DNA from: Vermamoeba vermiformis
Taxonomy: Eukaryota
Length of the DNA stretch: 64,000 nucleotides
NCBI GenBank assembly: GCA_045837725.1
Contig: JBEWZL010000191.1
Coordinates: forward strand, 1-64,000
Direction of reading: 5' to 3'
The notes beneath the pieces were generated by a model that worked only from the letters and a program-made list of their open reading frames with translations, made no database searches and was not told the DNA's origin. The stretch's first letter is position 1, and each line of letters opens with the position of its first letter. The translations under genes were made by a program, and so were the position numbers. This document shows, piece after piece, positions 6,544 to 64,000 of this stretch.

Positions 6544-9500
6544 TTAGCAAGCAAAGACGCTCAAGGGAGCACCTTTCATTTGCACAATGTTCTTGGCCGC
6601 AGAGTCATCGCGGTTAGAAGTGTCTTCGGACTTGCCAAAAATAGCTTCTTGAGCTTGAGCTTCACGCATGAATCCGTCCAACTTCTCGCCTTGCTTGATA
6701 AAGTTGATATACGCGCGTTGTTGATCTCGACGCTTCATGCCACGTTGCAACATGCGTTGATGCGAGATCAAATTAATACGAGCGTTTTGATAGTCACCGT
6801 GTTGAGCAATTTTAGCGCTTTCTTGCACGGCTTTCAACGCGACAATTGAAGCGTTCATGCTCACTTCGGACTCCTCGCGCTTGTTCGTGACACGTTGAGT
6901 CTTGGTAATGACGCGCAAGTAACGACCGCCATCGAGACGCGAGTAGATGATCTGAGCTTGAATAGTGACGTCGTCAGTCTTAAGTGGCACTGACGGATCC
7001 AGCGTGAAACCAAACGTCAGATCAATGTCTTCAGTGACGTTACCCATCTCACGTAAGGCCTTGTTGGAGCTCGAGTCAAGGAATTTCACTATGAAAAAGA
7101 CAACGTAAGCATTTGCACACGAATAATTTTGATAAAAGATTTGACTTACCTCCGTGAGATCCACGAACATTGACGGTGACACCAGTGCCCAAAACAGGCT
7201 TGCTCATGACCTTGGCGATTTGTTTGCTCAAGTCCAAGGGATCGACGATATCAACACTGCCAGCAGTGATATCAGCAACAGCGGCCAATTGCTCCAAGGC
7301 ACAGTCATCGCCACGAATGGTCAAGACGTTGATGGTGGTGCCGTTCTCTTTGGCCATGTTGGCAATGCGCTTGTAGAGGGCAGCGACATTCTCCTTGGCA
7401 GCACCAGTTGTGCCTTCAATAGAGCCGAAACCAACATTGGCGAGACCGTCAGTGCAGATCATAATCTTCGAGCCAGGGCGCTTAGAAGCCATACCAACTG
7501 CATAGGTCAAAGCAGGACCCAATGCAGTGCTGCCTTCGGTGTCCAATGAGTCAACACGATCAATCAACTTTTGGTGGCACTCTTTAGCAGATTTCTTGGC
7601 GCCAGGGAAGGCTTGACCGCGTTGGTAGCACATGTCGAAGTTGTTCAAGGTGCTGTTGTCAGTCAGCTTGACAGGAGCGTCGTAACCATCGCCGTAGACA
7701 GTGACGGTCTCACTGAAAGTAATCAAGACGGGGTGTTGGTTAGGGAAGTCCTTGGCCATTGATTGCAAGTGCGTGTGAACGGCAGCTTGCACGCATTGCA
7801 AACGGTTGATGCGAGTACGAGAGGGCATGCGACGTTGCAAAGCCTCAGGGAAGTTGACTTCACCAGTGACAGGAGTGTTGGTGCTCATAGAACCAGAGAT
7901 ATCAACACAGAAAATGACCATTGACTCATCGTTCTTTCTGTTTTGCTCGGAGATTTCGTGAAGGAGAGCGCTGTTGTCCATTTGCACGTTGGGCTTTTCA
8001 ATAATGAACTCAGTGTTGCTCTTCTCGGGCTTCTCGAAGTCTTCGAGTTGCACGCTGTTGGCGTGATCGCAGAACTCGCAAGTCCAGGTGTTATTGATGA
8101 CAACGCTCTTCTCGTTGAAAATGGCGCGGCAGCCCTCACAGTAGACGGCTTCACCGGTCATCAACTGTTCGGTGGGTTTGGCGAGACCAGCCATAGAAAC
8201 GCAGACGACGTTGGGGGTAGGAACTTCGTGCTTGAATGAAGTAGGGGAGCTTAACTTCAGCAGGCTTGACCTCTTCAGGCTTCTTCTCTTCAACGACAGG
8301 CTTGACTTCTTCAACGGGCTCTTCTTCGCTCTCAGACTCGCTTTCAACGTCTTCAACTTGGTTGCAGTTAGCAGGAGCGGGAGGAGCAGGCGCGTAGATT
8401 GATTTTGAGGATCCAGGCACATAGCTCGAGGAAGAGGCAGAGTAACACTTGCGGTGGACAATGGCGGGGCCGACTTCATCATAGTCTTCCTTGGTAACCC
8501 ACATATTTTGGAACGTGCTCAATGAGCCGAGGATAGAACCACCGATCCATGCAGAGTACTAATTATACTGGTTTAGTAAAAGCTAATGAAAGCAAATTAA
8601 GAGTGACTTACTTTGCGCTCAGGAGGAGCAACAACACGGATTCTGCAAGTCGAAGGAGCGAGAGCGGTCAATTCTTTTTGAATTCTGTCTGCAATGCCAG
8701 GGAACATGCTAGAACCACCGGACAAGACGATGTTGTGGTACAAGTCCTTGCGAATATCAATGTCGCACTTCATGATGGCGTTGTAAGCGAGTTCGTGAAT
8801 GCCGGCTGCTTCCATGCCCAAGAAAGAGGGCTGGAAGAGCACTTCAGCGCAGCGGAAACGCTCGTTACCAATGGTGATGACTTGGCCGTCGGGCAATTCG
8901 TAGCTCTTTTCCAATCGAGAGGACGAGTAAGCAGTTTGCATTTCTTGTTCAAAGTCCAAAGCAGTGTAGCAAAGTTTTTCCTTAATGTCACGGACAATTT
9001 CACGCTCGGCAGTCGTAGTGAAAGCGTAACCACGTTCAGTCAAAACTTTCATCAAGTAGTCGGTCAAATCACGACCGGCAATGTCGAGTCTCATAGCTGC
9101 GTGGCAAACTTCTAAGCCTTCGTAGATAGGAACGGCGTGAGTGACACCATCACCAATGTCGAGGACGAGACCAGTGGTTCTGCCTGAGGCGTAGAGCGAC
9201 AACGCTGATTGTGAGGCAGTGAAGAAGGCAGGAGCGTTGAATGACTCGAAGAGAATTTGAGTCATCTTTTCGCGGTTGGCCTTAGGGTTCCAAACATTCT
9301 CGGTCATCAAGATTGGGTGTTCTTCGGGCGCGACACGAAGCTCATTGTAGAAGGTGTGATGCCACAATTTTTCCATATCATCCCAGTTAGTAACAATGCC
9401 TACAAAGTTAGAGTTAGCTATGTCAAGTCACCTACTCAAGAAGGTCTAACGTACCGTGTTCGACGGGGTACTTGAGCGTCAAGATACCACGCTTGCTTTG

Positions 9501-10277
9501 GGCTTCATCACCGACGTAGCTGTCTTTTTGACCCATGCCGACCATGACACCAGTGTGACGAGGGCGGCCAATGAGTGAGGGGAATACAGCGCGTGGGGCA
9601 TCGTCACCAGCAAAACCAGCTTTGACGAACCACGAGCCGTTGTCGACCACGAGTGTTTGAATCTCATCGGAGAGAGAGTTAGCGCCGTACATTTGCGACA
9701 ACGATTGTTCTTGTGTAGTGAATGCCTTGTTTCCGGCAATGCGATCAAACTCTTCGTTTTGTTGCTTAGTCGCGTCCATAATCTTTTGTTGTCTGGCTTT
9801 CTGTTTCTCGACCTCTTCTTTGGTTCGTTGTTTTGAGACTGCGTCGTACTTGGCAGCCTTGCCCTTTTGATATCTTGGTTGCAAGCGGCGAGACGACGAG
9901 AAGACACCGTAGTTAGTGGCTTCAGCGTCGTTGTGGTTCATATTCGCTTGATTTTGCTTGGCTTGGCTTTGTTCTTGACCCATGCGGATCAACTCGTTCA
10001 AAAACTCTTTATCGAAGCCTTCGACGTCCTTGGCGGCATCGGCCCAAATTTTAGCTTGTTGCTGAGCTCCCGAGGACAGACCATCTTCAATTTCATCTAA
10101 GGCGAGATCCGTCAGAAATCAGATTCGAAGGAATAAGAACTTGGGCGAGTCATTCAACAATTGATGCTCGTTGTAAGAATGTAAGTATTGTTCTATAGTT
10201 CAATAGTTACCTTGATAGATCTCTTCCTCTTCGGCGGGATTCAGACCAACTAAAAATGCGGTAGTACCGAATTCCAT
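6544..10277 (-). CDS. Actin fusion protein: N-terminal extension, complete actin domain, acidic/Pro linker, Sec23/24-type Zn finger and vWA domain (CPRAS1-like body)
   Basis: Spliced actin runs from [25 protein letters not shown] to [10 protein letters not shown] with no stop, then a linker, then [10 protein letters not shown]...[24 protein letters not shown] and [10 protein letters not shown]. One +1 frameshift or a short intron near 8244-8247 is needed to join the two halves. Confidence 0.8.
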
Positions 10278-15914: not shown

Positions 15915-17502
15915 TTAAAATTTTGTGTCCACGTGCGACATGAAAAAACGATGGATGCCTTTAGCTCCGATCTCATTGTAATCGTCTATAGTCATAGCCA
16001 TACTATCATGCACAAACAGCGACCCTATTATACTGCCGCCGACCCAAGCCGAAAGCTGCGGATAAAATCAGCATTACTTTACCTAATTAGGAAAACAAAG
16101 TTTGGCTTACCTGCGCCTCAGGCAGTTTGACAACTTTAACGTCTTTATAATTGGTTGAAGCCAGTAATGCTTTCAAATCTTGCCTCAATCTCTCGCCTAC
16201 GCCAGACATTTGGCCAACAGCTCCACCAATCACAATATTCCGCAACAGTTCTTGGCGTAATTCTTCGGGACATTTTTCTATGCTTTGAAACACCAGATCC
16301 GCGAGACCAGGCGAGCTTATGTTAAGCACTGAAGGATTAAACAATGCCTCGCCTACTTTGCACCTCTCGGGGCCTATCATAAAATATAGTCATTATAGAT
16401 ATCTAGTACTGTCCAACTTCAGTAAGAAGTGTCAAAGTGTCAGAATTTGACACGTGTCAAAAATCGTGAAATTTTGTTATTGCATCGGACAAAGGTTTCA
16501 ATCATAGTGTACATATTATTATACATACCATAATTAATATATTCTCCGCCCGGTAATTCCCAGCCAGACCAATACCGATCGTAATTACAGGTAATTTCTG
16601 TGTTGCAATCCAAAGTAACATAACTGTGGCGTTCAGTAATCAAACGAAGACAATGTTTTTTTGCTGGTGAATCGAAATAATATCCGCCTTCATTAAGCAA
16701 TTTTTCAAAATACGAAGTCAGTTCTTTCCCGCCAAAATCGGCTACCGTAATTCCGTGAATAATTGGCAAACCCTCGTAAATAGGCACTACTCTTATTGAT
16801 TGATAGCCTAGTGCTACTGATAAGCCAGTTAATCTACCACTGCAATATAAGGACCAAAGTGATTGAGGTTGCATGACAATCGTCTTGAAGTTGAAAGTCT
16901 CGAAACACATCTCGGTCTTTTTTTCTCGATTTGAAGCGGGAATGAGCTCATGTTCGGAGACTAATAGGCTAAGGCCAGAGGGGTCCATTTTAATGTCCTC
17001 GTATATAATCCTATTCCATATTTTTTCAACGGTAGTCACATCCGAAAAAACTCCTATAGGCATCCATAAAACCAATTAAAATCATTCAATAGTAACTATG
17101 AAATATAAATATTCATTTGAAGAATTAAAATTAAGTGTTTTTTTTGGCTGGATGTCGAAAAAAAATTAAGACTTACCTCGTACAACAGGGAAAAATAGTT
17201 GTGGATCTTCAGGGACCATATTATTAACTTTAGCATCTTCATTAGTAGACACTGCAGTTGTTGAGTCAATTACTGGGAAATCTTCGCCGGCTATTCCAGC
17301 TTTCGTTTTGAAGGATCCCATGTCAATCACCACTGTACAATTTTTAAAAATTATAAATAAGTATACGAACGATATTTTAGGTAAAATAGTGCTTAAAAAA
17401 TAATTACTACTCCATTACAAATTTTCGTAACGGATTTAGAATTTGGAATTCAATTTCGCTGCAGTTCAGTTTAAACGTACATTTTATCGAGTCTTCAGCC
17501 AT
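15915..17502 (-). CDS. Divergent actin-like / actin-related protein
   Basis: Spliced MAEDSIKLVIDMGSFKTKAG, NREKKTEMCFETF, SGRLTGL, VVPIYEG, ELPGGEYI, NIVIGG and SAWVGGSIIGSL; stop TAA at 15915-15917. Confidence 0.88.
16448..16459. repeat. Intronic palindrome TGACACGTGTCA
   Basis: Read directly; preceded by two GTGTCA half-sites; lies in an intron of the actin-like gene. Confidence 0.6.
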
Positions 17503-50797: not shown

Positions 50798-52552
50798 ATG
50801 GAGAAGACAAAGAAAGTTTATCCAACTAAAATAAGCGCTATTGTTATTGGACCCCGAAAAAGCGGGAAAAGAACACTAATTAATCGGATATTTAAATTAT
50901 TCGTTGAATCTAAGCGAGGTACATTTTAAAACAGATCTGCTAAGTTTTTAAATTTAATTATTTAATTGGTACGCGCATTTGTTATTTAATTATTAAATAA
51001 TTACACTACACTCGATATTAACATATTTTAAAATAATAGCGGCTGCTAAACCCGAGCCCGAATATGGCTACGACAGGCTATTAACAGATCTTGATAAAGA
51101 CCAAGGCGTTGATCCAGCACACGTTACAATCTATACAAAACGATATTATATATCTATCAATCACTTAGTTGGACATCGAAGATTCATTCGCTCGTTGGCA
51201 AAACAAGCTCCGGATGTGAGTTTTTCTTCAAAGTTTTTACCTCCTGGAGGGCCTTTAATTATTATAATCCTAATTTTAATTATTTAATATGATATTATGT
51301 GCCATTTTAGTCAGCCCAGCGATAGATTATCAGCCAACAAAATTAATTAATATTTTTTTTTATCGAAGGTTGCTTTTCTTGTTGTATCAGCTGTAGCAGA
51401 AGAATTCGAAGAAAATCGAAAAGATATGATCGACCAATTAAGTATTAACAGCTATTTTGGCATTAAGAGCGTGATAGTACTTGTCACAAAAACGGATCTG
51501 ATCCAGCAAGATCCGGTTCGATTTTCTGAGATTGAAACATTTATTGACCATGAAATAACATCGAAAAAGTATGTGCTTGCCGAGTACTATATACTGTATA
51601 TAATTAATTATATTTCATGCAATACAGAATGAAATTCAAGTTCGTCAAGTACGTGCCTGTCAGTGGTACCGCTTCAGGTCTGAATCTGGCTTCAAAAACA
51701 CATTTAACAGAGTGGTACACTGGTCCTGCATTTATAGACCTTCTCGATGATATTCCGCCGAGAATTAATCGCGACGAGGATCTGCCAACTCGATTTTCCG
51801 TCGAAGAAATGTACAAGATTGGTATAGAATTTTATCAATTTTATGATGTTCAGTGAACCAGAATTTAACGTGCATTTGCAGAAGGCATCGGCTACATTGG
51901 CACGGGCAGACTTTTAACGGGAAGATTGACGTCAGGGTGACCAAATTATAGTCTCGCCTGGGCAGTGGTTAACGACCCTCAAAGCGATTGAAAATCATCA
52001 CGATGAGTTGTCAGTGACTGCAGGCACGTCTATCGGTGTATATATAGCGCATTATGGCAAAGATTTGAGAAAAGGACACGTGATTGGACATCCTTATGAT
52101 TGCCCGCCAAAGTCTGTCAAAGATTTTACGGTCTTGTTATGTACGTTCATGAATTCTGAATGATATTTCCTTTTATGGTAACCTTACATCTCGCTCTTGC
52201 TAACCCTATCTTTGCAGATGTAAATAAGTTGCCTAATTTGTTCGTCGTGGATCAAGTGCTCGAGGTCAAATGTCACAATGCGCTGGTCAAATGTAAAATC
52301 GCAGAATTGATTGGCAAAGTTGATATAATGTACGGCACGACGAGCACTTTGAACGATCAAAAAGTGGAAAGCAACGGATATATCCTAGTCAAGTTTGAGG
52401 TGGTAGATCCGGTGTCCTTGGAGCTGTACGCCGATTTCAAAGATTTAGGAAAAGTCGTTATTCAAGACGGCGATGGATTGATTGCCAGTGCCATAGTCAT
52501 TAGTGTAACGAACGAAGACAAACCATTTCAAAAACAACCACCTGGAAAATAA
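50798..52552 (+). CDS. Highly divergent eEF1A/HBS1/eRF3-family translational GTPase homolog (one apparent frameshift)
   Basis: IVIGPRKSGKRTL, GHRRFI, VAFLVVSA, YVPVSG..GLNL..WYTGP, DLPTRFSVEEMYKIEGIG..GR, KAIENHH, and domain III FKDLGKVVIQD. There is an extra G at 51935-51937. Confidence 0.78.
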
Positions 52553-52885
52553 CCCAGACCGTCGCAGTTATTGTAAAGCAGATTCGCTTCTAACCCACAC
52601 AAACTCTATGACTTACTCGTATTATTCTAACTACGCGGCCGTAAGAATGTCTTAGACGAGAAGCCCTTTCAGAGTTGCAAAAAAGGCATCGGAGGTTTTC
52701 GGACCTGCCTACAAGTGAGGGACATAAATTTCGTTTATTTGAAGAATAAAACCCTCTTGTAACGCTTATGTACACAAAGCAATATAACCTCACATCATGA
52801 GCAACATATCACCTGATCTCTTGTTGGTTGCATAAGACTTTTTTATGTACAATAAACATCTACAAATCGATATTGCCAATTCGTT

Positions 52886-55288
52886 TTACACATCATATTC
52901 CTTTTCTTCTTTCTCTGGTTGACCTTTATCGTGCAACGAGACCTTAATCAACTTATTCAAGAACTCTTGCATAATTTTCATATTCTTCTCGAGCTTGTCA
53001 TCCATAATCTTTTTCTCGCGTTCAGTTGTAGCGTAACCCTGCGCCTTCGCGGATGACCATTTCAGTCTCTAACTGGCCCTCGACAAAGTGCGTGATGAAT
53101 TGGACGGGTGTCAAGTCCATGTCAGGGAACTGCGTCTTGATGAGGTTAACGCCTGTGTCAATGGCGTACTTGAGTCCACCGTTCTCTTTCACTTCAATGT
53201 ACAGCTCATTGGTGCAATTCCAAACGATATTCTTCAACAACTTTTCATTGTCTAAATATCAACGGTTAATCTTATGTTTCTAAAAGCAAGAATTCGGGTT
53301 ATTTTTACGTACTAAAGATGACGCTGACGGAAGTACTGTTGTCAACTTGCATCGTGAAGATTGGCACGGACACGTTCAATGTGACGTTGGTGCATTCAAT
53401 CATCTCCAAAGTGCTCGTCAAGATACCGGCATTGATGTTCAACACGAGGTTGTCGCATCGCTCTGTGAAATTGATCAAGTTAATAAAAGTTCATCAGATC
53501 CGCCTCAAAAAAGTGACACGTGTCAAAGTGACGATTGCACGAGACTTACCAATGATGACTTTAGTGCACTTGTTGTTGATATCAAACACGGAGTTGTTGC
53601 TGTGCTTAATGTACAACAAGTCCTTGATGGTGTATCCGTCCAGCTTGATGTTTTGACCGCTCTGTTGGTCCACCAAGAACATTCCTCGGCCTGCAATCTT
53701 GTTGACAGGCACTGGAAGGGGTTGACTTGGCGCTGAAGCATTGACGGGCTTTGGAGCCACGGTCTCTTTCTTCGGTTGTTCGCGACTCTTTTTGATGTCT
53801 TCGATCTTCTGCAAGTGCATCTTTTCGATCTGTTCTTTAGTCCGCAGTTGATAGACCATGCCTGTAGGTGTGCTGACTAAGTGCTCGACATTCAGCTCTT
53901 GCAACAACAAGGTCATAAAATCATCGGTCGTGCATCGGACCAACATGGCAGCTTCAGAGTCGTCTAAGATAGGACAGTATATTAGTATATGTATTGTATT
54001 ATTATTAAGGGTCGTAGTGTCACTTACAAGGTGTCTTCTGAAGGTTCACAATGACCATTTTACCACCGTTTTTCTTGCCGTAAGTTGGCAACTCGCACGC
54101 AGGTCTGACGCGCATAGAAGTACCCATTACAATCGACAAATCAGCTGCTTTTGATTGGTTGACGGCGTTGGTGAGTTCTTTTTCGGGTAAATTCTCGCCA
54201 AAGTTAATAATGCTGTCCACTAAAATAAAAAAAGTTTAGATCAGATCCGACCCAAAATGTTAAGTAGTATAACATCGATTGCGTCAATAATATGCTTAAG
54301 TTATATTAAAAGAGTTATACATACTCAAATCACCATCGCATCCAGGCTGGGTGCATTTATTGCCAGTCACGTGATCGTGGCCATGACCTGGTCTGCAGAC
54401 ATCGTGGTCACGCAAGTACTCAGTTTTGCACTTTCTGCATCGCTCTAAGTAAGCATTGCCGTGAAGCTCTGCCAACTATAATACCAATGAGTCACATTGT
54501 TTGATTTGTAATAGCGGATCTGACATACTTTTTCACGAGGGAAGCCGGATCTCATGTGTAAGCCGTCAACGTTTGTGCTAACGATGTATTTAAGCAGACC
54601 TTGCTTTTCAAGTTGAACAAGGCTCATATGGCAGATCTGCGTATTATTAGAAATGAACTAAGCGTTTAACGGAATTTTACTTACGGTTGGATGGATTTCT
54701 TCAAGACTTTTAGTAAAATGCGGTTTAAGACCTTGTGCAGCCAATGTCCATACTCCATTAGGACCTCTATAATCAGGCAAGCTCGTGGATGTTGAAACAC
54801 CAGCGCCTGTGTAAACTACAACGTGTTTGGCCGCGCGGATCAGCTCAGCAAGTTCTTTGACCTAATAAAAATTTGCAAAAATCAGATTATGGCTCTATTA
54901 TACTTAGTGATGCTAAAATGTCATTCGAATGCGAATTAACAATATTTCTCCATTTTTGTACGATTTTTCAATTTCGCTCGTAAATTCAATCTGCCCAAGA
55001 CGCACCTTTTTATAAAGAACAGAAGGCTCATCGAAATATTCTGTAATATCTTCATCAGGGCCAATTGCATATCGGCCGCCAGGAGCTGGAGGAGTTACGG
55101 ATACGCTGTGTCGCACGACCTAACAGAATTCGGTTAGTGTGCAGCTTAAACATTACAACCAATAATCAACAGTACTTCAAAGTGAATAAATTATGAATGT
55201 TTAAATTGCGATATCTTACTGTCTGGGTTGGCTTCAGCTTGTCTTTCTGAAATCCAACAAGCTCGCTAAACAAACCGTCTTTTTCCAT
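52886..55288 (-). CDS. Fusion of a WH2/thymosin-like motif, a class IV (SIRT6/7-like) sirtuin and a C-CAP (cyclase-associated protein C-terminal) beta-helix
   Basis: Exon 1 [23 protein letters not shown]; sirtuin [31 protein letters not shown], Zn Cys pairs, FGENLP, GTS and VNLQKT; then [38 protein letters not shown]. Removing an extra base at 53037-53039 restores GYATTEREK...DV*. Confidence 0.86.
53514..53525. repeat. Intronic palindrome TGACACGTGTCA
   Basis: Read directly in the intron interrupting the C-CAP domain. Confidence 0.6.
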
Positions 55289-55578
55289 TTTTTATTGTTG
55301 TGTGGTTATCTTATGGTAGTGAATGTTGAATAGTAAAGATCTTCGTAATTTTAAATAGAGGTAAAAAAAGCTTTTTTCGATTAATTTCTGCGAAATTCAC
55401 TTTTGTACAGGCTACGCAAATGGGAGCCGTTAGCCTTATTTCATTGAAACTATGATGACAGCACATCTAGCGAAACAGAAATTGTGAACGGGCGGTCTCA
55501 AGGTAGAATTTTCTTTTACTTACAGATCTTCCCTGATCTTTGTCTGCTAATTACAAAATTGACAATAGTACTACCAAA

Positions 55579-58506: not shown

Positions 58507-60954
58507 TTACAGGTGGTTATCTTCCTTCCACAACAAAATAGCCTCTTTCAAGCCATAGGAAAGTTCGTCTAACGAATCATTTTGATACAATTTGATCTCT
58601 TCTGAGATATCCGTTGCCAAATTGTTCCTCAAAGTCGCAGCTTCTCCGTCATCCCGACTAACAACACCAGTCAAGTTGTAAGTCTGCAACAACTCCATCA
58701 TCTTCGCGTATATTTGACCTTCTTTAGTGGCACTCATATCAACGCCAGCTAATTTAATCGCTCTCTTCAACATGTGACGAGCAGGATCTGACGATGATTC
58801 TTGTTCAGACATGTACTTTGAAGGGTTCTGGTACACGTCCAGTGGCGAAGGAGACGAGAATGCACCGCCATCCTTTGGTGGGGGCGGCGCGTCTGTAGCA
58901 TTGCCATAGTACATAGGCTGTGGGTCAATTACGTGGGACTGTGGCTGGGGTTGAATCACGTGCTCTTCAGGTGGTACGATCACGTGACTTGGCTGCACGA
59001 CGTGTTGAGGCTGAGGGTTGATATCGATCACGTGATTGTTGTAGATATTGGGCTGAGCAGGGGGTGGAATCACGTGAACAGGATCGACCACCACGTGGCT
59101 TGGCTGCGGATCCACATTGATCACATGAGGCATCTCGGTCTTAGTCTCCGCAGGCTTCTTAGTTGACGACGATGATGAGCTGCCCGATGATGACGTACTC
59201 GATGCTCGTTCGCGATTTCGCATTTCTTGGACCTCGAGGGGGACTTCTGGTTGAAGTCCAATCTCAGCACGTGCTCCAAAGTCTTCTCGTGGTTTTCTCT
59301 CTTTGACAGGCCTCTCAGGCACCTTCCATAACAAGGCTACTAAAGTGATCATGAAGAACAATCCCGCGAGCAACATGAAAACAAACGAGGCAATGCCCCA
59401 CCAAAACTGCACTTCCCACAAGTACCATTCATTGGCAGCTGCACCAATCACTCCAATGCAAAATTGTTGCGGCAAGCAAATGATAGTGAAGGCTTTGTAC
59501 GAGCGCTGAAAATGTCCATAACTTGTGCTAAGCAAGTCATCGGCCAGGAACCACGTCACAGCGAGAATAGCGATGTTAAACGCCACGGAGATGAACATGA
59601 GGCCAGTGAATGGATAGACGAAGCCGAGAATATGGGTGTTGAGCACAAAGAGGATCCAACCAAGGAACAAAAGAATGTAGGCTCGCACATCCAATCGTCT
59701 TGATTCCTTTCGGCATTGGACGAGCAACGCAAGGCAAAATACGAAGAGCATCAAGCCAGTGCTTACAACAGTCAACACTACTGGCATGGCAACTTCACGA
59801 GCTAGATCCGCCAGTTGATTAGTAAGTTTTATCGATCGGAAGTCCTTATAAGACGCACCTTCGATTGTTCCAAAGTTGTCAGAATCAGACAGTGCATTGA
59901 CTCTAGCAAATGATATTGATGCGTCGAGCGCTGCAAGGCCCAAATTGGCCGTGTTATTAGAGTTATCGAGATCGTACTGACAACCTAAAAAAAAATTAAT
60001 TAATTATAATTATTAAGCAATAGGTATTATACGTCTAATTATTATCAGTGCTTTGGTACACAATAATAGAATTCTAATTTCAATTTTCCGATTTTTAGTT
60101 CTAATTTAACCTACCCAACTGGAATTCTTCGGGTAATTTGCTGCAAGCTGAATAAGAAACGATCGATGGATAGCCAGGTACTGATACTTCAGCGGTGCAA
60201 GTGTTATTCTGGGTGCAAATTCCTTGGCTGACATCCGCCAATCCGGTTCGAATTGAAACCGACATGTATCTTCCGGATTTTCTTATAATTAAGTCCGTAT
60301 TGACTGCCAATAAGTTGATTGCTGCTTCCGTCGTATTTTGAGTAATAGTAATCAAATGGGGGAACCATCCTTGGGCCGGGATTCGTCGCGCATCCCAGTC
60401 ATCCTTTGAATACCAGGTTCTGGAATAAACAGCGCATCCATGATAATCAAATCTAATACCAGTAATTCCAGGATATAATATGCCGGCAGTAACGCGGTCG
60501 TCGACGGTGGTGTTGGTGAGCGCCGTAATGGTAAAGTATTCGTTGGTTAATAATATCGTTGAATTTTGTTGAGGGCAAAGCAGCACAGTACTATTAAAAT
60601 CAATAGTATGATAAATGCCCCATACTGAGCATGTTTGTCTTGCTTCTGCTACTTGCGTGGGAACCGTTGAGCAAATCGGGCACGATCCTGGTCGAAATAG
60701 CTTCGGAACGAAAGTATGAATAGCATCCCTGTATTTCGTATCCAAGACATGAGGCATCTAAGCATTGAGATAAGCCATAAGCGTTGGAACAAAAATCGGA
60801 ATTCGAAGGATCCACATTAAACTCGGCAAGGCAATCACTATTTACGGTGTTAACTGCCTCGGAGCAGCCTGTATGTGCCTGTGTCTACCGCGTCTTGCTG
60901 GTACGAAAGGCCAAATAAAATAAATATGAAAAAGACTGCTGTTGTTGTGCCCAT
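58507..60954 (-). CDS. RGM/vWD-like ectodomain multipass membrane protein, paralog A (two apparent frameshifts in exon 1)
   Basis: Signal peptide MGTTTAVFF..QQDA, CSVWGIYH and FQLGCQYDL, about 5-6 TM segments, HVI-repeat Pro/Gln region, C-terminal LSYGLKEAILLWK. Collinear with paralog B. Confidence 0.75.
58925..59125 (-). repeat. Coding tandem repeats (H-V-I/V-x-P-Q-P)
   Basis: Repeated CACGTG codon pairs encoding HVINVDPQPS, HVVVDP, HVIPP, HVIDINPQPQ and HVIQPQPQS. Confidence 0.7.
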
Positions 60955-61287: not shown

Positions 61288-63796
61288 TTACAATTGATGT
61301 TCATCTTTCCACAACAATACAGCTTCTTTCAATCCATAAGCCAGATCTTCAGCCGAGTCGTTTCTGTACATTTTCAATTCCTCCGCTAAATGCTTCGCGA
61401 GATCATTCCTTAATGAAGCTGCCTTAGTATCTTCACCATATAATGCTCCGACTAAGTTTTGAGCTTGCAAGAGCTCTTGAACCTTGGCACAGATCAGACC
61501 TTCGCGTACTGGATCAACTTCGATGCCGGCGATCTTAATAGCTCGCTTAGCCACTTGTCGTGACGTATCTAAACTGTTATTTGGCATTGGATTTGACATC
61601 ATAAATTGAGTTGGATCCGGTGCTGCCATGTACTTTGCGGGGTTTTGGTACACGTCCATAGGCGAAGGAGCGTTGAAAGCTCCAGCACCATTAGGAGGTG
61701 GCGGGGCCTCTAATGGATTGCCATAATAGATTGGCTGAGCTTCGATCACGTGACTTTGTGGTCGAGGTTGAATCACGTGGTCTTGCGGTGGTGGTACTAC
61801 AGGGCCTTGTTGCGGTTGAATCACGTGACTCTGTGGCTGCGGCACAACAGGGCCTTGTTGTGGCTGCATCATAATTGGTTGTGCTTGTGGCATAGGTTCG
61901 ACTGCTACTACACGCATTGGTGGTGGCAAGATACCCTGTTGCACTTGGATCACGTGCTGTTGTTGGACTTGCACGGGTTGAGGCTGTTGCTGTTGTTCAG
62001 CACGAGCGACTTCCATAGCGACCATGAGGTCATTGAGCACTTGCATAGGCTCTTGATGTACAGGCGCAGGGCCGTTGAGAATCTTCGCAGCCCAGCTCAT
62101 GTCCAAGCACAAGAAGCACATGAAGATGCCTCCCGCGAGCAACAAGCCGAGGACGCCAATGCCCCACCAGAACTGCACCTCGATGAGATAATACTCGCCA
62201 GCAGCGGCGCCGATAATTCCTATAGCTGCTTGCTGCGGTAGAGCAAAGCCTAAGAGGGCTTTAGTGATGTGAATTGACTGTTGCGTGAATTTGCTCGATC
62301 CAAAGGTGATACATTTGTGATTGGTTCCAACCCAAGCAAGGATCCATATGCCACAGAAAGCTGATAGTATTGTCATGCCCGTGAATGGGAATAATAAGCC
62401 AATCGCATGAGGGTTCAAGCAAAAGATGATCCAGCACCAGATCGCTCTGATCGGAGCAGATTCGAGATTTCTGTGACGAGCCGCAGGTGTGTATGCGTTT
62501 GCAGAAAAACAACAACAGCAACCCGTATTAGCGTTACAACATCCTTCATAGGCCGAAAACTCCATTGTTTCAGCTGCGCGCTTCATTGCTTTTCGGCGCC
62601 AAAAATAGGCTCCAATATAAACTCCAACCATGACTGCCGTCGGTCCTAATGTCAAGACAATAGGCAAACCAGTCTTCTGAACTGTAAGTAAATTAAACAC
62701 GATTAGATCCGCAACGAAAATGAAAAGACAGTCTGAAAACTCGAAAATTGAATCAAACTTGATATTTACTGAATGGTACTTACATTCTACTTCGCCAAGG
62801 CTCGATGAATTGGATAGACTCTTTAAATAGGTATCAATTGTGACGGCATCCGAGATCAAAGCAGTGGGTTGATCTGTGAGTGAGTCGTACGAGCACGCTG
62901 AGAACCAAATTAATTAGCTTACTATTAAATAATATATCTCCTAATTAGAGTATCAATTTACCTCTCTGGAATTCGGTTGGGTAAGATGCACAAGACGGGA
63001 TCGAAGCGAATACAGAGCTATCTAACGTGCAATAATTGCTCATGCAAACCCCACCAAGTGAGATGGTATTAGTACTATATCGAACACCAGTAGTAATGCT
63101 AACTGCCAATAAATTTGAACCAGATGGCGCTGATATAATAATCTCCGTATTTAACGCTGGCAATTCTATTAATACTTGTGTAGTATTTTGAGTAATATGA
63201 ATGGTATGTGGGAACCATCCTTGCGTTGCAACTCTTTCTGCTCTCCATCCATCTGCTCTTCGCCACGTTCTTGAAAATATTGCGCAATAATGATATTCAA
63301 ATTTAATTCCAGTAATTCCAGGAGTAGCTGCATATATTGTGGAATTGGATTCGGCCGTAAGCGTGAAGTGAAGGTTGGAAAAAATAACAAATGAGGAGTT
63401 TGTTGCAATGCCACAGGTCTCTGGTTGTCTAGTAAATGGTACTACGTGGCCTGTTCCCCATACGGTGCATGTTTGTTTCAAATCTGTCACGACTTTGGGC
63501 TCATCGTAACAATCTGGACAGATGTTCGGTCTATTCAATGCAGGAACGACTAACTGAGCCGCTGATACTACTGTCTGCGACATACATGATGCGTCTATAC
63601 ATTGCGTGAACGCTAAACCATAGGCGCAAAAGCCAAAGTTGGTAATATCATCCGGCGACGCGTAACTAAATCCAGTAGCGCTCAAACAATAGTCGTTAAT
63701 GCTTTGCACGAGTGGATCGCATTGACCAGTTATAGCATCTTGCTGAAGTGAATAGCCGACTAAAATAAATAAAAGTACGGCTGTCGTTGTGCTCAT
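61288..63796 (-). CDS. RGM/vWD-like ectodomain multipass membrane protein, paralog B (intact)
   Basis: Signal peptide MSTTTAVLLF..QQDA, Cys-rich helical part, CTVWGTGHVVPF and EFQRACSYDSLT, TM block with LPQQ..GIIGAAA..EVQFWWG, Q/P repeats, C-terminal LAYGLKEAVLLWK. Confidence 0.8.
61745..61960 (-). repeat. Coding tandem repeats (QPQQGPVVP / SHVIQP)
   Basis: Near-duplicated units QPQQGPVVPQPQSHVI and QPQQGPVVPPPQDHVI. Confidence 0.7.
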
Positions 63797-64000
63797 CTTG
63801 AAAAACAAGACAAAAAAATGAAGGAAAATCTCTAACCGAAAGCTGTCAAATTCGTAAGCGCTGACAAAACCCCCAACATTCCGTAGCTGGTACAACTAGT
63901 ACTAACCTAACTCAGAATGGTCTGCTTCTTCAGATTCAGCTAGATCTGACACAACAAATAATTCAATTGAGATAGTGGCCTATCTTTGCATTTCTATGAG

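Follow-up and report, generated by a model that had tools for sequence, protein, structure and literature searches.

The sirtuin/CARP gene described here, which consists of nine exons on the minus strand (55288..52886) of the window (i.e., the whole stretch of 64,000 nucleotides that was analysed), is genuine and spliced, and it specifies a protein of three-part architecture, whose constituents follow one another in the order beta-thymosin/WH2-like motif, SIRT6-type core, linker, CAP_C (CARP) beta-helix and helical tail. We regard it as an evenly balanced matter whether this protein represents a class IV NAD-dependent sirtuin which is embedded in the half of CAP that binds actin monomers, and which clamps G-actin and acts on a lysine of the clamped monomer. 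The WH2 and CARP modules would, according to this proposal, together clamp G-actin, with the catalytic core being held beside it on short flexible tethers, where it would most likely deacylate a lysine residue, either in the clamped actin itself or in something bound to that monomer; ADP-ribosylation may represent an alternative chemistry of the core. Both the identity of actin as the substrate and the reaction carried out are points that we infer. In this manner, the fusion may connect the actin cytoskeleton with NAD metabolism and, should the proposal be correct, the actin monomer pool, in both its size and its polymerisability, would be tied to the supply of NAD+.

Gene structure, splicing and reading frame

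The gene model contains eight introns, all bounded by GT..AG and measuring 100, 144, 48, 53, 105, 64, 87 and 61 nt, and is read in one frame. Its exons, the joints recovered from sequencing runs and the features of its 3' end are as follows.

Exon 1: 55220..55288, minus strand; start codon and beta-thymosin/WH2-like motif, amino acids 1-23; GTAAGA donor
Exon 2: 55006..55119, minus strand; spacer between motif and core, and beginning of the sirtuin N-terminal helix, amino acids 24-61
Joint 54861/55006: X4 contig, there as 54859/55004 with the cut at +2
Exon 3: 54685..54861, minus strand; start of the NAD-binding Rossmann fold (YTGAGVST)
Joint 54636/54685: X4 contig
Exon 4: 54529..54636, minus strand; sirtuin core (STNVDGLH)
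Joint 54476/54530: X4 contig, together with five RNA reads in X21 and six in X23
Exon 5: 54325..54475, minus strand; catalytic His (ELHGN, codon 54463-54461) and four Zn cysteines; CTQPGC
Exon 6: 54028..54219, minus strand; second half of the Rossmann fold; this piece alone matches Pfam SIR2 with 28 bits
Joints 54219/54325 and 53963/54028: X4
Exon 7: 53550..53963, minus strand; C-terminal helix of the sirtuin; linker, partly helical and partly disordered; initial strands of the CARP beta-helix
Exon 8: 53313..53462, minus strand; turns of the CARP beta-helix; Pfam CAP_C profile positions 56-104, E 0.0038
Joints 53462/53550 and 53251/53313: X4
Exon 9 as in the window: 53022..53251, minus strand; end of the CARP beta-helix, 'REGAG' tail, LRYN, TGA (53024-53022)
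Extra base: 53037..53040; GGG run on the minus strand; shifts the frame
Conserved tail: 52886..53036, minus strand; YATTEREKK... helix, stop codon TAA at 52888-52886; joins the frame solely when the extra base is omitted

Seven of the eight predicted joints occur at the coordinates of the model in transcript contigs of run X4, intron 1 being the one uncovered, and one X4 record ends exactly at the acceptor at 55119 with seven letters unplaced. The raw RNA reads of X21 and X23, which carry the same species label, number 23 and 17, respectively, none of them being 99% alike, and support one joint only, with no bearing on exon 1. The point at which sirtuin and CARP are fused had been placed by the earlier note within a single exon, and it does fall inside exon 7 (53963-53550), which record 9 of X4 covers as one unbroken piece (53550-53963); in the orthologues, this exon is 77-88% identical over 100% of its length. 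The full-length orthologues P0001, P0002 and P0004 are located on intron-less contigs of 1.8-3.4 kb, in which all parts are present and the same N-terminal motif is found, and the window protein model shares 91.9% identity with P0001 over 519 amino acids.

When read literally, the window sequence terminates at TGA 53024-53022, which results in a product of 534 amino acids from which the tail has been cut off. The extra base at 53040 is absent from the two read-derived contigs which cover positions 53037-53040, these being one DNA contig of X1 (741.1 of 741.1 depth, one contig) and one contig of X4 (9.97 of 9.97), and the orthologues read through the frameshift site as REGAGYATT. The last open reading frame pointed out earlier (52886-53068, 60 codons) corresponds to the conserved tail, being identical to residues 528-568 of P0001 at 37 of 41 positions, but in the window it lies off frame through one extra base at 53037-53040. 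A tiny intron that would restore the 3' frame was considered and rejected, as no GT..AG pair does so and the reads point to one extra base. A search of the window against Rfam returned no match. Small shares in metagenome runs from water, biofilm and aquifers are not taken to indicate a habitat, and a search with actin listed mostly animal names, actin being too conserved for placement.

Protein parts and the predicted complex with actin

To judge by its sequence, the core is a class IV (SIRT6/7-type) sirtuin with intact catalytic residues. GAGVS is encoded by the exons of the window, as are the His of the active site (in ELHGN) and the four cysteines of the Zn ribbon, the last two features having been recognised from the DNA at the outset, and the corresponding residues G80, A81, G82, S84, H161, C169, C172, C197 and C202 are invariant in all ten rows of alignment A1, as are GAG and STN.D in the ten aligned members. 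The full-length orthologues match Pfam SIR2 with E-values of 2.5e-24 to 3.4e-25 (86-89 bits), while the PDB matches of the core are headed by SIRT6 (3.8e-73), followed by SIRT7 (2.5e-55) and then Sir2Tm (3.1e-36), with SIRT3, SIRT5 and SIRT1 chains at 1e-16 to 1e-19. Human SIRT6, whose catalytic His and Zn ribbon are retained in the window protein, is also the closest core by Foldseek (E 3.8e-26, 44-46% identity).

The N-terminal motif looks like an actin-monomer binder. Exon 1 of the window, taken alone, matches Pfam Thymosin below the cut-off (E 0.011; 15.9 bits versus 24.8). A profile of 15 motif segments bore out the earlier view of this exon as beta-thymosin/WH2-like, in that thymosin beta-4, thymosin beta-9 or ciboulot chains accounted for seven of its nine matches in a PDB set of 177,635 sequences, the best of which were 4pl8_H (6.6e-7) and thymosin beta-9 (5.3e-5). 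Pfam, when applied to single motif segments, detected Thymosin in 9 of 15 (best 1.6e-5) and WH2 in 2 of 15, and the motif HMM was positive in 13 additional relatives outside its training set. The motif is separated from (Y/F)TGAG by 52-68 residues (median 56) in 25 of the 26 motif-bearing relatives measured, a spacing which holds whether CARP is N-terminal or C-terminal.

The CARP part, too, resembles an actin-monomer binder on comparison with known families. Pfam CAP_C scores above its cut-off of 23.8 bits in orthologues P0001, P0002 and P0004 (41.3, 45.1 and 56.6 bits, respectively) and in 12 of the 20 additional relatives scanned, whereas the two exon pieces of the window remain below it (17.5 and 17.3 bits) because introns split the domain. 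Against the PDB (E up to 1), six of ten matches of the CARP part were CAP C-terminal domains (best E 3.3e-4), among them CAP1 CARP structures including 6fm2_B, a chain solved with actin. The AF2 model of P0002 contains a beta-helix of approximately 20 short strands at 365-535 (block pLDDT mostly 80-94), in keeping with the right-handed beta-helix fold of CARP domains, and, in the tail, a predicted helix at 536-570; the 50 Foldseek matches listed were all sirtuins and none was CAP. The actin contacts of mouse CAP1 (K347/Y351/Y353, K365/N367/D372, Y418/F447 and D446/E449) were mapped by hand onto P0004, in which K347, Y351 and K365 are kept while Y353, N367 and D372 are replaced by K, T and E, respectively; the secondary-interface residues 446-449 fall outside the alignment to this protein. 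In the tail, 'REGxGYxTTxREK' is conserved irrespective of domain order.

The fusion protein is predicted to bind actin. Modelling of such a complex had been suggested in the earlier note, in which both flanking modules were taken for actin-monomer binders, and the thymosin and CAP1 CARP matches, together with the predicted complex, are in keeping with that assignment. For actin P0241 and P0002, an ipSAE of 0.77 was obtained (runs 0.74, 0.78 and 0.77), compared with 0.01 for the best of three controls, and since solved CARP-actin and thymosin-actin complexes exist, this pass may amount to recall and is to be read as likeness, not binding; the mark applied is reached by 51 of 78 solved complexes versus 2 of 108 mismatched pairs. 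Partner pLDDT was at least 74, at least 58% of contacts were common to the runs, and the modelled stoichiometry was 1:1, whereas the CARP of CAP acts as a dimer. The confident interface of P0002 is formed by residues 5-27 (WH2; 5-13 and 15-27), the CARP face, tail residues 525-534 and the helix at 542-561, and includes K384, Y388, K390, K402, T404 and E409, which are the hand-mapped equivalents of the CAP1 primary interface. On the side of actin, positions 144-149 and 338-356 are contacted in the prediction with the WH2 motif in the interface, while predicted contacts at 167-176, 285-290, 369-376 and 109-116 fit the primary interface of CAP, which, as set out in the text of PMC5951797, is located on actin subdomains 1 and 3, in overlap with the profilin site. 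The predicted interface list does not include actin 40-62 (D-loop, K50/K61). None of the sirtuin-core residues (28-362) belongs to the confident predicted actin interface, and hence no actin lysine is placed at the active site.

Alternative readings of the fusion

It is conceivable, albeit rather unlikely, that G-actin is a regulator of this sirtuin and not its substrate, with WH2 and CARP sensing the monomer pool and steering the location or activity of an enzyme directed at chromatin or at some other target. Actin-binding motifs are used as regulators or sensors of the monomer pool in MRTF and JMY. The constant spacing of 52-68 residues between this motif and the NAD-binding one, with the former seated directly on the core's N-terminal extension, would suit such a role, as would the exclusion of the catalytic core from the predicted actin interface, the status of animal class IV sirtuins as chromatin enzymes and the addition of PBD/CRIB, zf-UBP or a C-terminal hydrophobic segment in some relatives. 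In SIRT6, however, the loop 167-TVAKARGLRA-176, with its arginine anchor R175, is needed for binding to the nucleosome acidic patch (PMC10104460), and this loop is missing from the window protein, in which four residues are left (CTQPGC), none of them basic. The alignment to SIRT6 chain 8g57_K accordingly contains a six-residue gap at the acidic-patch loop, which measures 2-4 residues in all ten rows of A1. As SIRT7 is likewise devoid of the SIRT6 loop and yet binds nucleosomes (structure listing), the loss of the loop does not exclude chromatin as a target. A clear nuclear localisation signal was not recognised by eye in this protein, and two separate modules which copy the CAP clamp exceed the needs of a sensor; the predicted actin-binding modules of the window protein have no counterpart in SIRT6.

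We consider it improbable that the beta-helix provides a CARP-fold scaffold for some other purpose, such as dimerisation or the binding of tubulin or a small GTPase as a partner in the manner of TBCC/RP2, and that the motif is lineage-specific and unrelated to actin. Weak TBCC matches below the cut-off (13.4-23.4 bits) were given by seven of 24 scanned proteins, but the CAP_C score exceeded that of TBCC in every protein for which both were listed, and PDB matches at E up to 1 comprised CAP chains in six of ten cases and RP2/TBCC chains in none. The CAP1 contact set is kept only in part, and yet all ten invariant CARP columns of A1 (K405, T424, E428, I430, T445, D449, Q510, R527, G531 and T534) coincide with the predicted actin face. 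While the motif is not detectable in 12 of the 21 relatives in which CARP comes first, its profile finds thymosin/ciboulot chains almost exclusively.

That the architecture reflects an annotation or assembly artefact, with two adjacent genes being read as one or exon 1 lying outside the transcript, is barely credible: intron 1 (55120-55219) is bridged by no record and the window contains a frameshift near its 3' end, but the sirtuin-CARP junction lies within one exon and one transcript contig piece, the full-length orthologues, on contigs too short for introns, begin with the same motif, motif, core and CARP occur in a single protein in 16 of 38 CARP-bearing relatives, and the frameshift is absent from read-derived contigs.

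Relatives and comparison with known proteins

Among 153 relatives examined, 38 bear a CARP domain, which is positioned upstream of the sirtuin core in 21, and both domain orders are represented among the relatives found. Eight relatives have an organism name, seven of these being amoebozoans and one an apusomonad. In a FastTree phylogeny, 30 of 31 CARP-bearing cores are grouped on one side, with an SH-like support of 88 that is not starred; no order of events is drawn from this tree, since it is poorly resolved, with 56 of 139 inner branches open.

The statement of the earlier note that no protein of such architecture had been described does not hold. As reported in the text of Gold and Sinclair 2022 (PMC9486876), class IV 'SIR8' sirtuins of sponges, corals and jellyfish/cnidarians carry CAP-C, which the authors refer to as an actin-binding domain while leaving the role of the fusion open. 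According to the same text, CAP-C is located upstream of Sir2 and is present in about half of the members, the family is dated to about the animal/choanoflagellate split, and its members share a SIR8-specific motif of approximately nine residues (supplementary fig. S3). The window protein resembles SIR8 in the fusion of a class IV sirtuin core to Pfam CAP_C (PF08603), but differs in that CAP_C is downstream of the core and in that the named relatives recovered here are amoebozoans and an apusomonad, SIR8 being found in animals. The combination of a sirtuin with CAP actin-monomer modules spans amoebae to sponges, and the range of the CAP-C/sirtuin fusion is thereby extended from early animals to Amoebozoa and apusomonads. 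While the fusion itself had already been described, the terms WH2 and thymosin each occur zero times in the main text of the SIR8 paper, and no published description of a WH2-like motif in CAP-C-bearing sirtuins, or of the domain order seen here, was found among the papers listed on sirtuins and WH2, thymosin, CARP, CAP-C or cyclase-associated protein. The present analysis adds this second, apparently unreported motif, putatively actin-binding, whose spacing from the active site is constant. It is possible, though doubtful, that the fusion represents an ancient actin-directed NAD enzyme, shared from amoebae to early animals, which is dedicated to capturing actin with a CAP-like clamp and then deacylating or ADP-ribosylating it.

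A further known counterpart is the C-terminal half of CAP1/Srv2 (WH2 - PP2 - CARP), as presented by Kotila et al. 2018 (PMC5951797), with which the fusion shares a WH2-type motif and CARP in the same N-to-C order, 'EGAG' of the window-protein tail matching 'EIAG' of CAP1. In place of the short PP2 linker of CAP, the fusion harbors some 300 sirtuin residues, and its CARP matches that of CAP1 only distantly (best PDB E as given above). SIR2 and CAP_C were the only domains detected by Pfam in P0001, P0002 and P0004; CAP_N was not, nor was the N-terminal half of CAP/Srv2 (oligomerisation, helical folded domain). The motif of the fusion is nearer to beta-thymosin (LKPTQT) than to the WH2 of CAP (LKHV). 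The text of PMC5951797 describes a strand-swapped CARP homodimer in which the free C-terminal tail reaches the part of actin that senses the nucleotide, whereas the tail of the fusion is not C-terminal, approximately 50 more residues following EGAG in the orthologues and A1.

In mammals, a complex of CAP and lysine-acetylated actin is linked to INF2, as the background given in the earlier note had it and as the text of PMC11589041 agrees; there, actin lysine acetylation and the associated control of a formin via CAP are a recent finding, for which the enzymes are not settled, HDAC6 being a candidate deacetylase. The mammalian axis ties CAP-bound G-actin to lysine deacetylation through separate proteins and a zinc HDAC, two elements which the fusion would join in one polypeptide. 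If the proposed action on clamped actin is correct, the fusion would become the first actin-modifying eraser in which substrate capture is built in, and it would offer a natural 'Rosetta stone' to the CAP/acetyl-actin deacetylase question, which the pairing of a lysine deacylase-type core with the two monomer-binding modules of CAP may make directly testable. The view of class IV sirtuins as enzymes of chromatin is likewise altered by the fusion. The NCBI entries for relatives recovered here label them as ordinary sirtuins.

Structure and expression of the sirtuin gene

The analysis showed an intact class IV sirtuin that is permanently joined to a CAP-type CARP beta-helix (CAP_C or C-CAP) and, at a fixed short distance, to a beta-thymosin/WH2-type motif. 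The gene comprises nine exons on the minus strand, from 55288 to 52886 of the window, separated by introns of 100, 144, 48, 53, 105, 64, 87 and 61 nt. All eight introns possess GT..AG ends, and seven carry a GTAAG, GTATG, GTACG or GTGCG donor.

Exons of the sirtuin gene
55288-55220, minus: exon 1, encoding [23 protein letters not shown]
55119-55006, minus: exon 2, sirtuin core (exons 2-6 and the start of exon 7)
54861-54685, minus: exon 3, part of the core
54636-54529, minus: exon 4, part of the core
54475-54325, minus: exon 5, part of the core
54219-54028, minus: exon 6, part of the core
53963-53550, minus: exon 7, end of the core, linker and first strands of the CAP_C-like beta-helix, uninterrupted
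53462-53313, minus: exon 8, beta-helix continued
53251 onward, minus: exon 9, beta-helix completed

Seven of the eight predicted introns are precisely skipped by transcript-like contigs (X4), which are 95-99% alike to the window, are labelled as another organism and are RNA by the guess of the tool; none of the seven joints is present in the DNA contigs (X1). Raw RNA reads of the same species label were few, 23 in run X21 and 17 in run X23, all of them less than 99% alike to the window, and the one joint that they confirm is 54476/54530.

Joints seen in the X4 contigs
53251/53313, minus
53462/53550, minus
53963/54028, minus
54219/54325, minus
54476/54530, minus: also in 5 and 6 raw RNA reads (X21, X23)
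54636/54685, minus
54861/55006, minus: given with the cut +2

Within 54633-54686, a variant of the 54636/54685 joint occurs in the X21/X23 reads and in a single X4 contig: 54633 is connected to 54685/54686 through three to four other letters (AAT/AATA). The variant may stem from an allele or species that has diverged, or from use of another acceptor at a distance of three bases.

One X4 record spans all of exon 7 without a break, as does the window, and the fusion of sirtuin and C-CAP inside a single exon, as claimed in the earlier note, is thus upheld. The exon 1 string quoted there matches the encoded residues exactly, and its membership of the transcript is borne out in part. Intron 1 is bridged by no record aligned to the window (X1, X4, X21 and X23), while one X4 record ends exactly at 55119 with seven letters unplaced, the behaviour expected of a spliced read and weak evidence of one. 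The full-length orthologues P0001 (580 aa), P0002 (583 aa) and P0004 (575 aa) open on the motif of exon 1, followed directly by the sequence of exon 2, and their contigs, at 1.8-3.4 kb, are too short to hold introns; at the sequence level, these orthologues lend independent support to the presence of exon 1 in the message.

As read, the window closes the frame with ...[13 protein letters not shown] at 53024-53022, yielding 534 aa, and the orthologues have ...[18 protein letters not shown]... in this position. Because of this orthologue reading, the match of the out-of-frame last ORF to P0001 residues 528-568 (37 of 41 identical), and the omission of one letter at 53040 by the only X1 contig and the only X4 contig there, the GGG run at 53037-53039 of the window is concluded to carry one surplus base. 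The base is an error of the consensus or else a lesion confined to one allele. Owing to this base, the last ORF proposed previously (52886-53068) lies in another frame of the window. The X1 contig near 53040 also carries 3- and 4-base indels relative to the window and may, for this reason, derive from the other haplotype. The X1 contigs occur in two versions at 52872, 52904, 53272, 53301, 53507, 55330-55345 and ~30 single-base sites, for example with depths of 412.6 versus 560.1 over 53395-53568, and diverge by a few percent plus small indels; the sample seems to hold a pair of haplotypes or of almost identical copies.

Domain composition and distribution of the family

Exons 2-6 and the beginning of exon 7 specify a complete sirtuin core, in agreement with the earlier note, and a Pfam scan of separate ORF pieces detected SIR2 in three pieces of the window. 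P0002 matched human SIRT6 (E 3.8e-73) and SIRT7 (E 2.5e-55) in the PDB, SIRT6 also being the top Foldseek match (E 3.8e-26; identity 44-46%). An alignment of 10 members with the same domain order shows no variation in the GAG motif, S84, STN.D, catalytic H161 or the four Zn cysteines. Human SIRT6 harbors the loop 167-TVAKARGLRA-176, whose R175 is described in the accessible part of PMC10104460 as an anchor on the nucleosome acidic patch, whereas in 10 of 10 members of the above alignment this SIRT6-specific loop is reduced to 2-4 residues.

Exon 1 alone scored below the cut-off of Pfam Thymosin (E 0.011, 15.9 bits). A profile of exon 1 and 14 segments of relatives, searched against 177,635 PDB sequences, returned nine matches at E up to 10, of which seven are beta-thymosin or ciboulot chains (E 6.6e-7, 5.3e-5, 3.1e-4, 1.1e-3, 5.3e-3, 0.13 and 0.64). 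Among the 15 single segments, Thymosin was detected in nine (best E 1.6e-5) and WH2 in two; the motif was matched in 13 proteins outside the motif-HMM training set. In 25 of the 26 proteins measured, the last T of LKxTxT lies 52-68 residues from (Y/F)TGAG, with a median of 56; the pattern used mis-registers two rows, and one protein has a C-terminal motif. Since this spacing is kept in both domain orders, the constant unit is motif plus core, with the CARP on either side.

Pfam CAP_C was detected in two window pieces (E 0.0034 and 0.0038) at consecutive profile positions (9-60 and 56-104), in P0001, P0002 and P0004 (41-57 bits), and in 12 of 20 more distant relatives above the cut-off (15 of 20 listed). 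Searched against the PDB, the CARP part of P0004 gave 10 matches with E values no higher than 1. Six are CAP C-terminal domains, namely, 1k8f (E 3.3e-4), 6fm2_B (a chain solved with actin; E 7.6e-4), 9q7o, 2b0r, 1kq5 and 1k4z; the other four are three chemoreceptor coiled coils, which match the helical tail, and one integrase, and no RP2 or TBCC chain is among the 10. An AlphaFold2 model of P0002 (10-row alignment; mean pLDDT 74.1, pTM 0.48) displays a confident beta-helix at 365-535 and a helix at 536-570, with 335-363 disordered and a disordered N-terminus bearing a short helix at 6-11. The sequence REGxGYxTTxREK and a helix are kept after the CARP in both domain orders.

A scan of P0002 against 1.84 billion representatives gave 12,278 matches at E up to 1e-3, mostly sirtuins. 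Architectures were called with our own HMMs of core, CARP part and motif in 153 proteins: P0001-P0004 and 149 of the 150 matches listed, among which P0001 also appears.

Architectures among the 153 proteins examined
WH2-SIR-CARP (order of the window gene): 7
SIR-CARP: 10, of which 7 are fragments, as they start inside the core
CARP-WH2-SIR: 9
CARP-SIR: 12
WH2-SIR: 10
SIR-WH2: 1
Core only: 104

Additional Pfam domains in CARP-first proteins are PBD/CRIB (Cdc42/Rac-binding) in P0045, which is another tie to actin regulation, and zf-UBP in another protein. P0045, P0090 and P0110 form a CARP-first sub-group devoid of the WH2-like motif, with a C-terminal hydrophobic segment that is probably membrane-spanning.

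A FastTree tree of 142 cores leaves 56 of its 139 inner branches open. One of its splits, with an SH-like value of 88, not starred, sets 64 rows to one side, and among these are 30 of the 31 CARP-bearing rows and 8 of the 10 motif-only rows; the domain-order label switches at least twice among the CARP rows. This is taken as showing, from core sequences, that CARP-bearing and motif-bearing cores constitute one subfamily, and the tree bears nothing finer. Organism names accompany 8 of the 20 relatives looked up.

Named hosts
Flabellula baltica, Tubulinea
Pyxidicula operculata, Tubulinea
Amoeba proteus, Tubulinea
Balamuthia mandrillaris, Discosea; deposited as 'sirtuin-7'
Pelomyxa schiedti, Archamoebae; two relatives
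Planoprotostelium fungivorum, Variosea
Thecamonas trahens, Apusomonadida; deposited as 'transcriptional regulator'

The nearest Atlas cluster (SIR2 100%, CAP_C 24%) has Discosea as its commonest phylum, with the phylum known for 11 of 68 members, and is a lead only. The named relatives, together with the short introns, point to a free-living protist, probably an amoebozoan, as the source of the window.

Predicted actin complex and proposed function

A complex with actin, whose modelling the earlier note had suggested, was predicted 1:1 for P0002 and the conventional actin P0241 by a tool that does not use supplied alignments. The score was 0.77 (runs 0.74, 0.78 and 0.77) versus 0.01 for the best of three controls, and the mark set by the tool is one that 51 of 78 solved complexes attained, against 2 of 108 mismatched pairs; since like complexes have already been solved, the good score may reflect recall, and the model shows likeness rather than binding. 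Partner pLDDT was at least 74, and at least 58% of contacts were common to the runs. The confident predicted interface on P0002 comprises the motif (5-13 and 15-27), one face of the beta-helix (363, 383-390, 402-410, 421-431, 442-450, 465-471 and 507-510), the tail (525-534) and the helix at 542-561, with no residue of the catalytic core. On actin, it comprises the cleft (144-149 and 338-356) and the profilin-side surface (109-116, 167-176, 285-290 and 369-376), with no residue of 40-62. All 10 invariant CARP-part columns of our alignment, and none of the six nearly invariant ones, lie in the predicted interface, as do all P0002 positions hand-mapped onto CAP1 K347/Y351/Y353 and K365/N367/D372. 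The prediction fits the CAP1 primary interface as described in the accessible part of PMC5951797, although the CARP of CAP acts as a dimer and the present complex was modelled as 1:1.

The two flanking modules are predicted to clamp one actin monomer in the CAP manner, and the tethered core is proposed to act on the captured monomer or on one of its partners, most likely through lysine deacylation and possibly through ADP-ribosylation. This logic has a precedent in the mammalian CAP/acetyl-actin (K50, K61)/INF2 axis, for which PMC11589041 does not settle the deacetylase. The main rival is that G-actin regulates the sirtuin instead of serving as its substrate, and the data fit both. Of the NAD+-dependent actin deacylase proposed earlier, the observation is confirmed and the interpretation stands in part, as a predicted actin clamp; that actin is the substrate is what we infer.

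The belief that no protein of this architecture had been described did not hold, as CAP-C-bearing class IV 'SIR8' sirtuins were named in sponges, corals and jellyfish by Gold and Sinclair (2022; PMC9486876), and the sirtuin-CAP_C fusion as such is already in print. The accessible text of that paper places CAP-C ahead of Sir2 in roughly half of its sequences, whereas the CARP lies downstream of the core in the window gene; it also reports a motif of ~9 residues, leaves function open and dates the family to about the origin of animals. The words 'WH2' and 'thymosin' are absent from its main text, and its supplementary Fig. S3 may show the same motif. Our literature search retrieved no further paper on SIR8 sirtuins and nothing relevant joining a sirtuin with CARP, CAP or WH2. 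Not found in this literature, the SIR8 main text included, were a CARP downstream of the core, a WH2-type motif at constant spacing from it, the conservation of the tail that follows the CARP, members in amoebozoans and apusomonads, and the predicted actin clamp.

Other genes of the window

An actin gene of at least three exons (8151-10118, minus) specifies an N-terminal extension of ~140 residues before the actin fold, its middle exon being ~80% identical to conventional actins and 89% to the actin fragment P0179. Another actin-like ORF (16440-17075, minus; 211 aa) has diverged further and looks, by eye, like an actin-related protein. A tandem pair of similar genes (58507-60757 and 61288-63895, both minus) combines, in each copy, an extracellular part rich in Cys with several hydrophobic segments and with a tail rich in Pro and Gln, in which SHVI(Q/D)PQP units recur. 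Pfam RGM_C is matched by the extracellular part in the first copy (E 3.7e-7), and the other pieces of the pair gave no Pfam match. A translational GTPase whose C-terminal domain is of the eEF1A type (Pfam GTP-eEF1A_C, E 6.6e-12) has its last exon at 52160-52552 (plus), and this exon is convergent with the 3' end of the sirtuin gene, with ~330 bases between the stop codons. Finally, a large single ORF (7076-8518, minus) harbors Sec23/Sec24 zinc finger, trunk domain and VWA-like matches, preceded by a low-complexity Ser/Lys/Leu-rich stretch.
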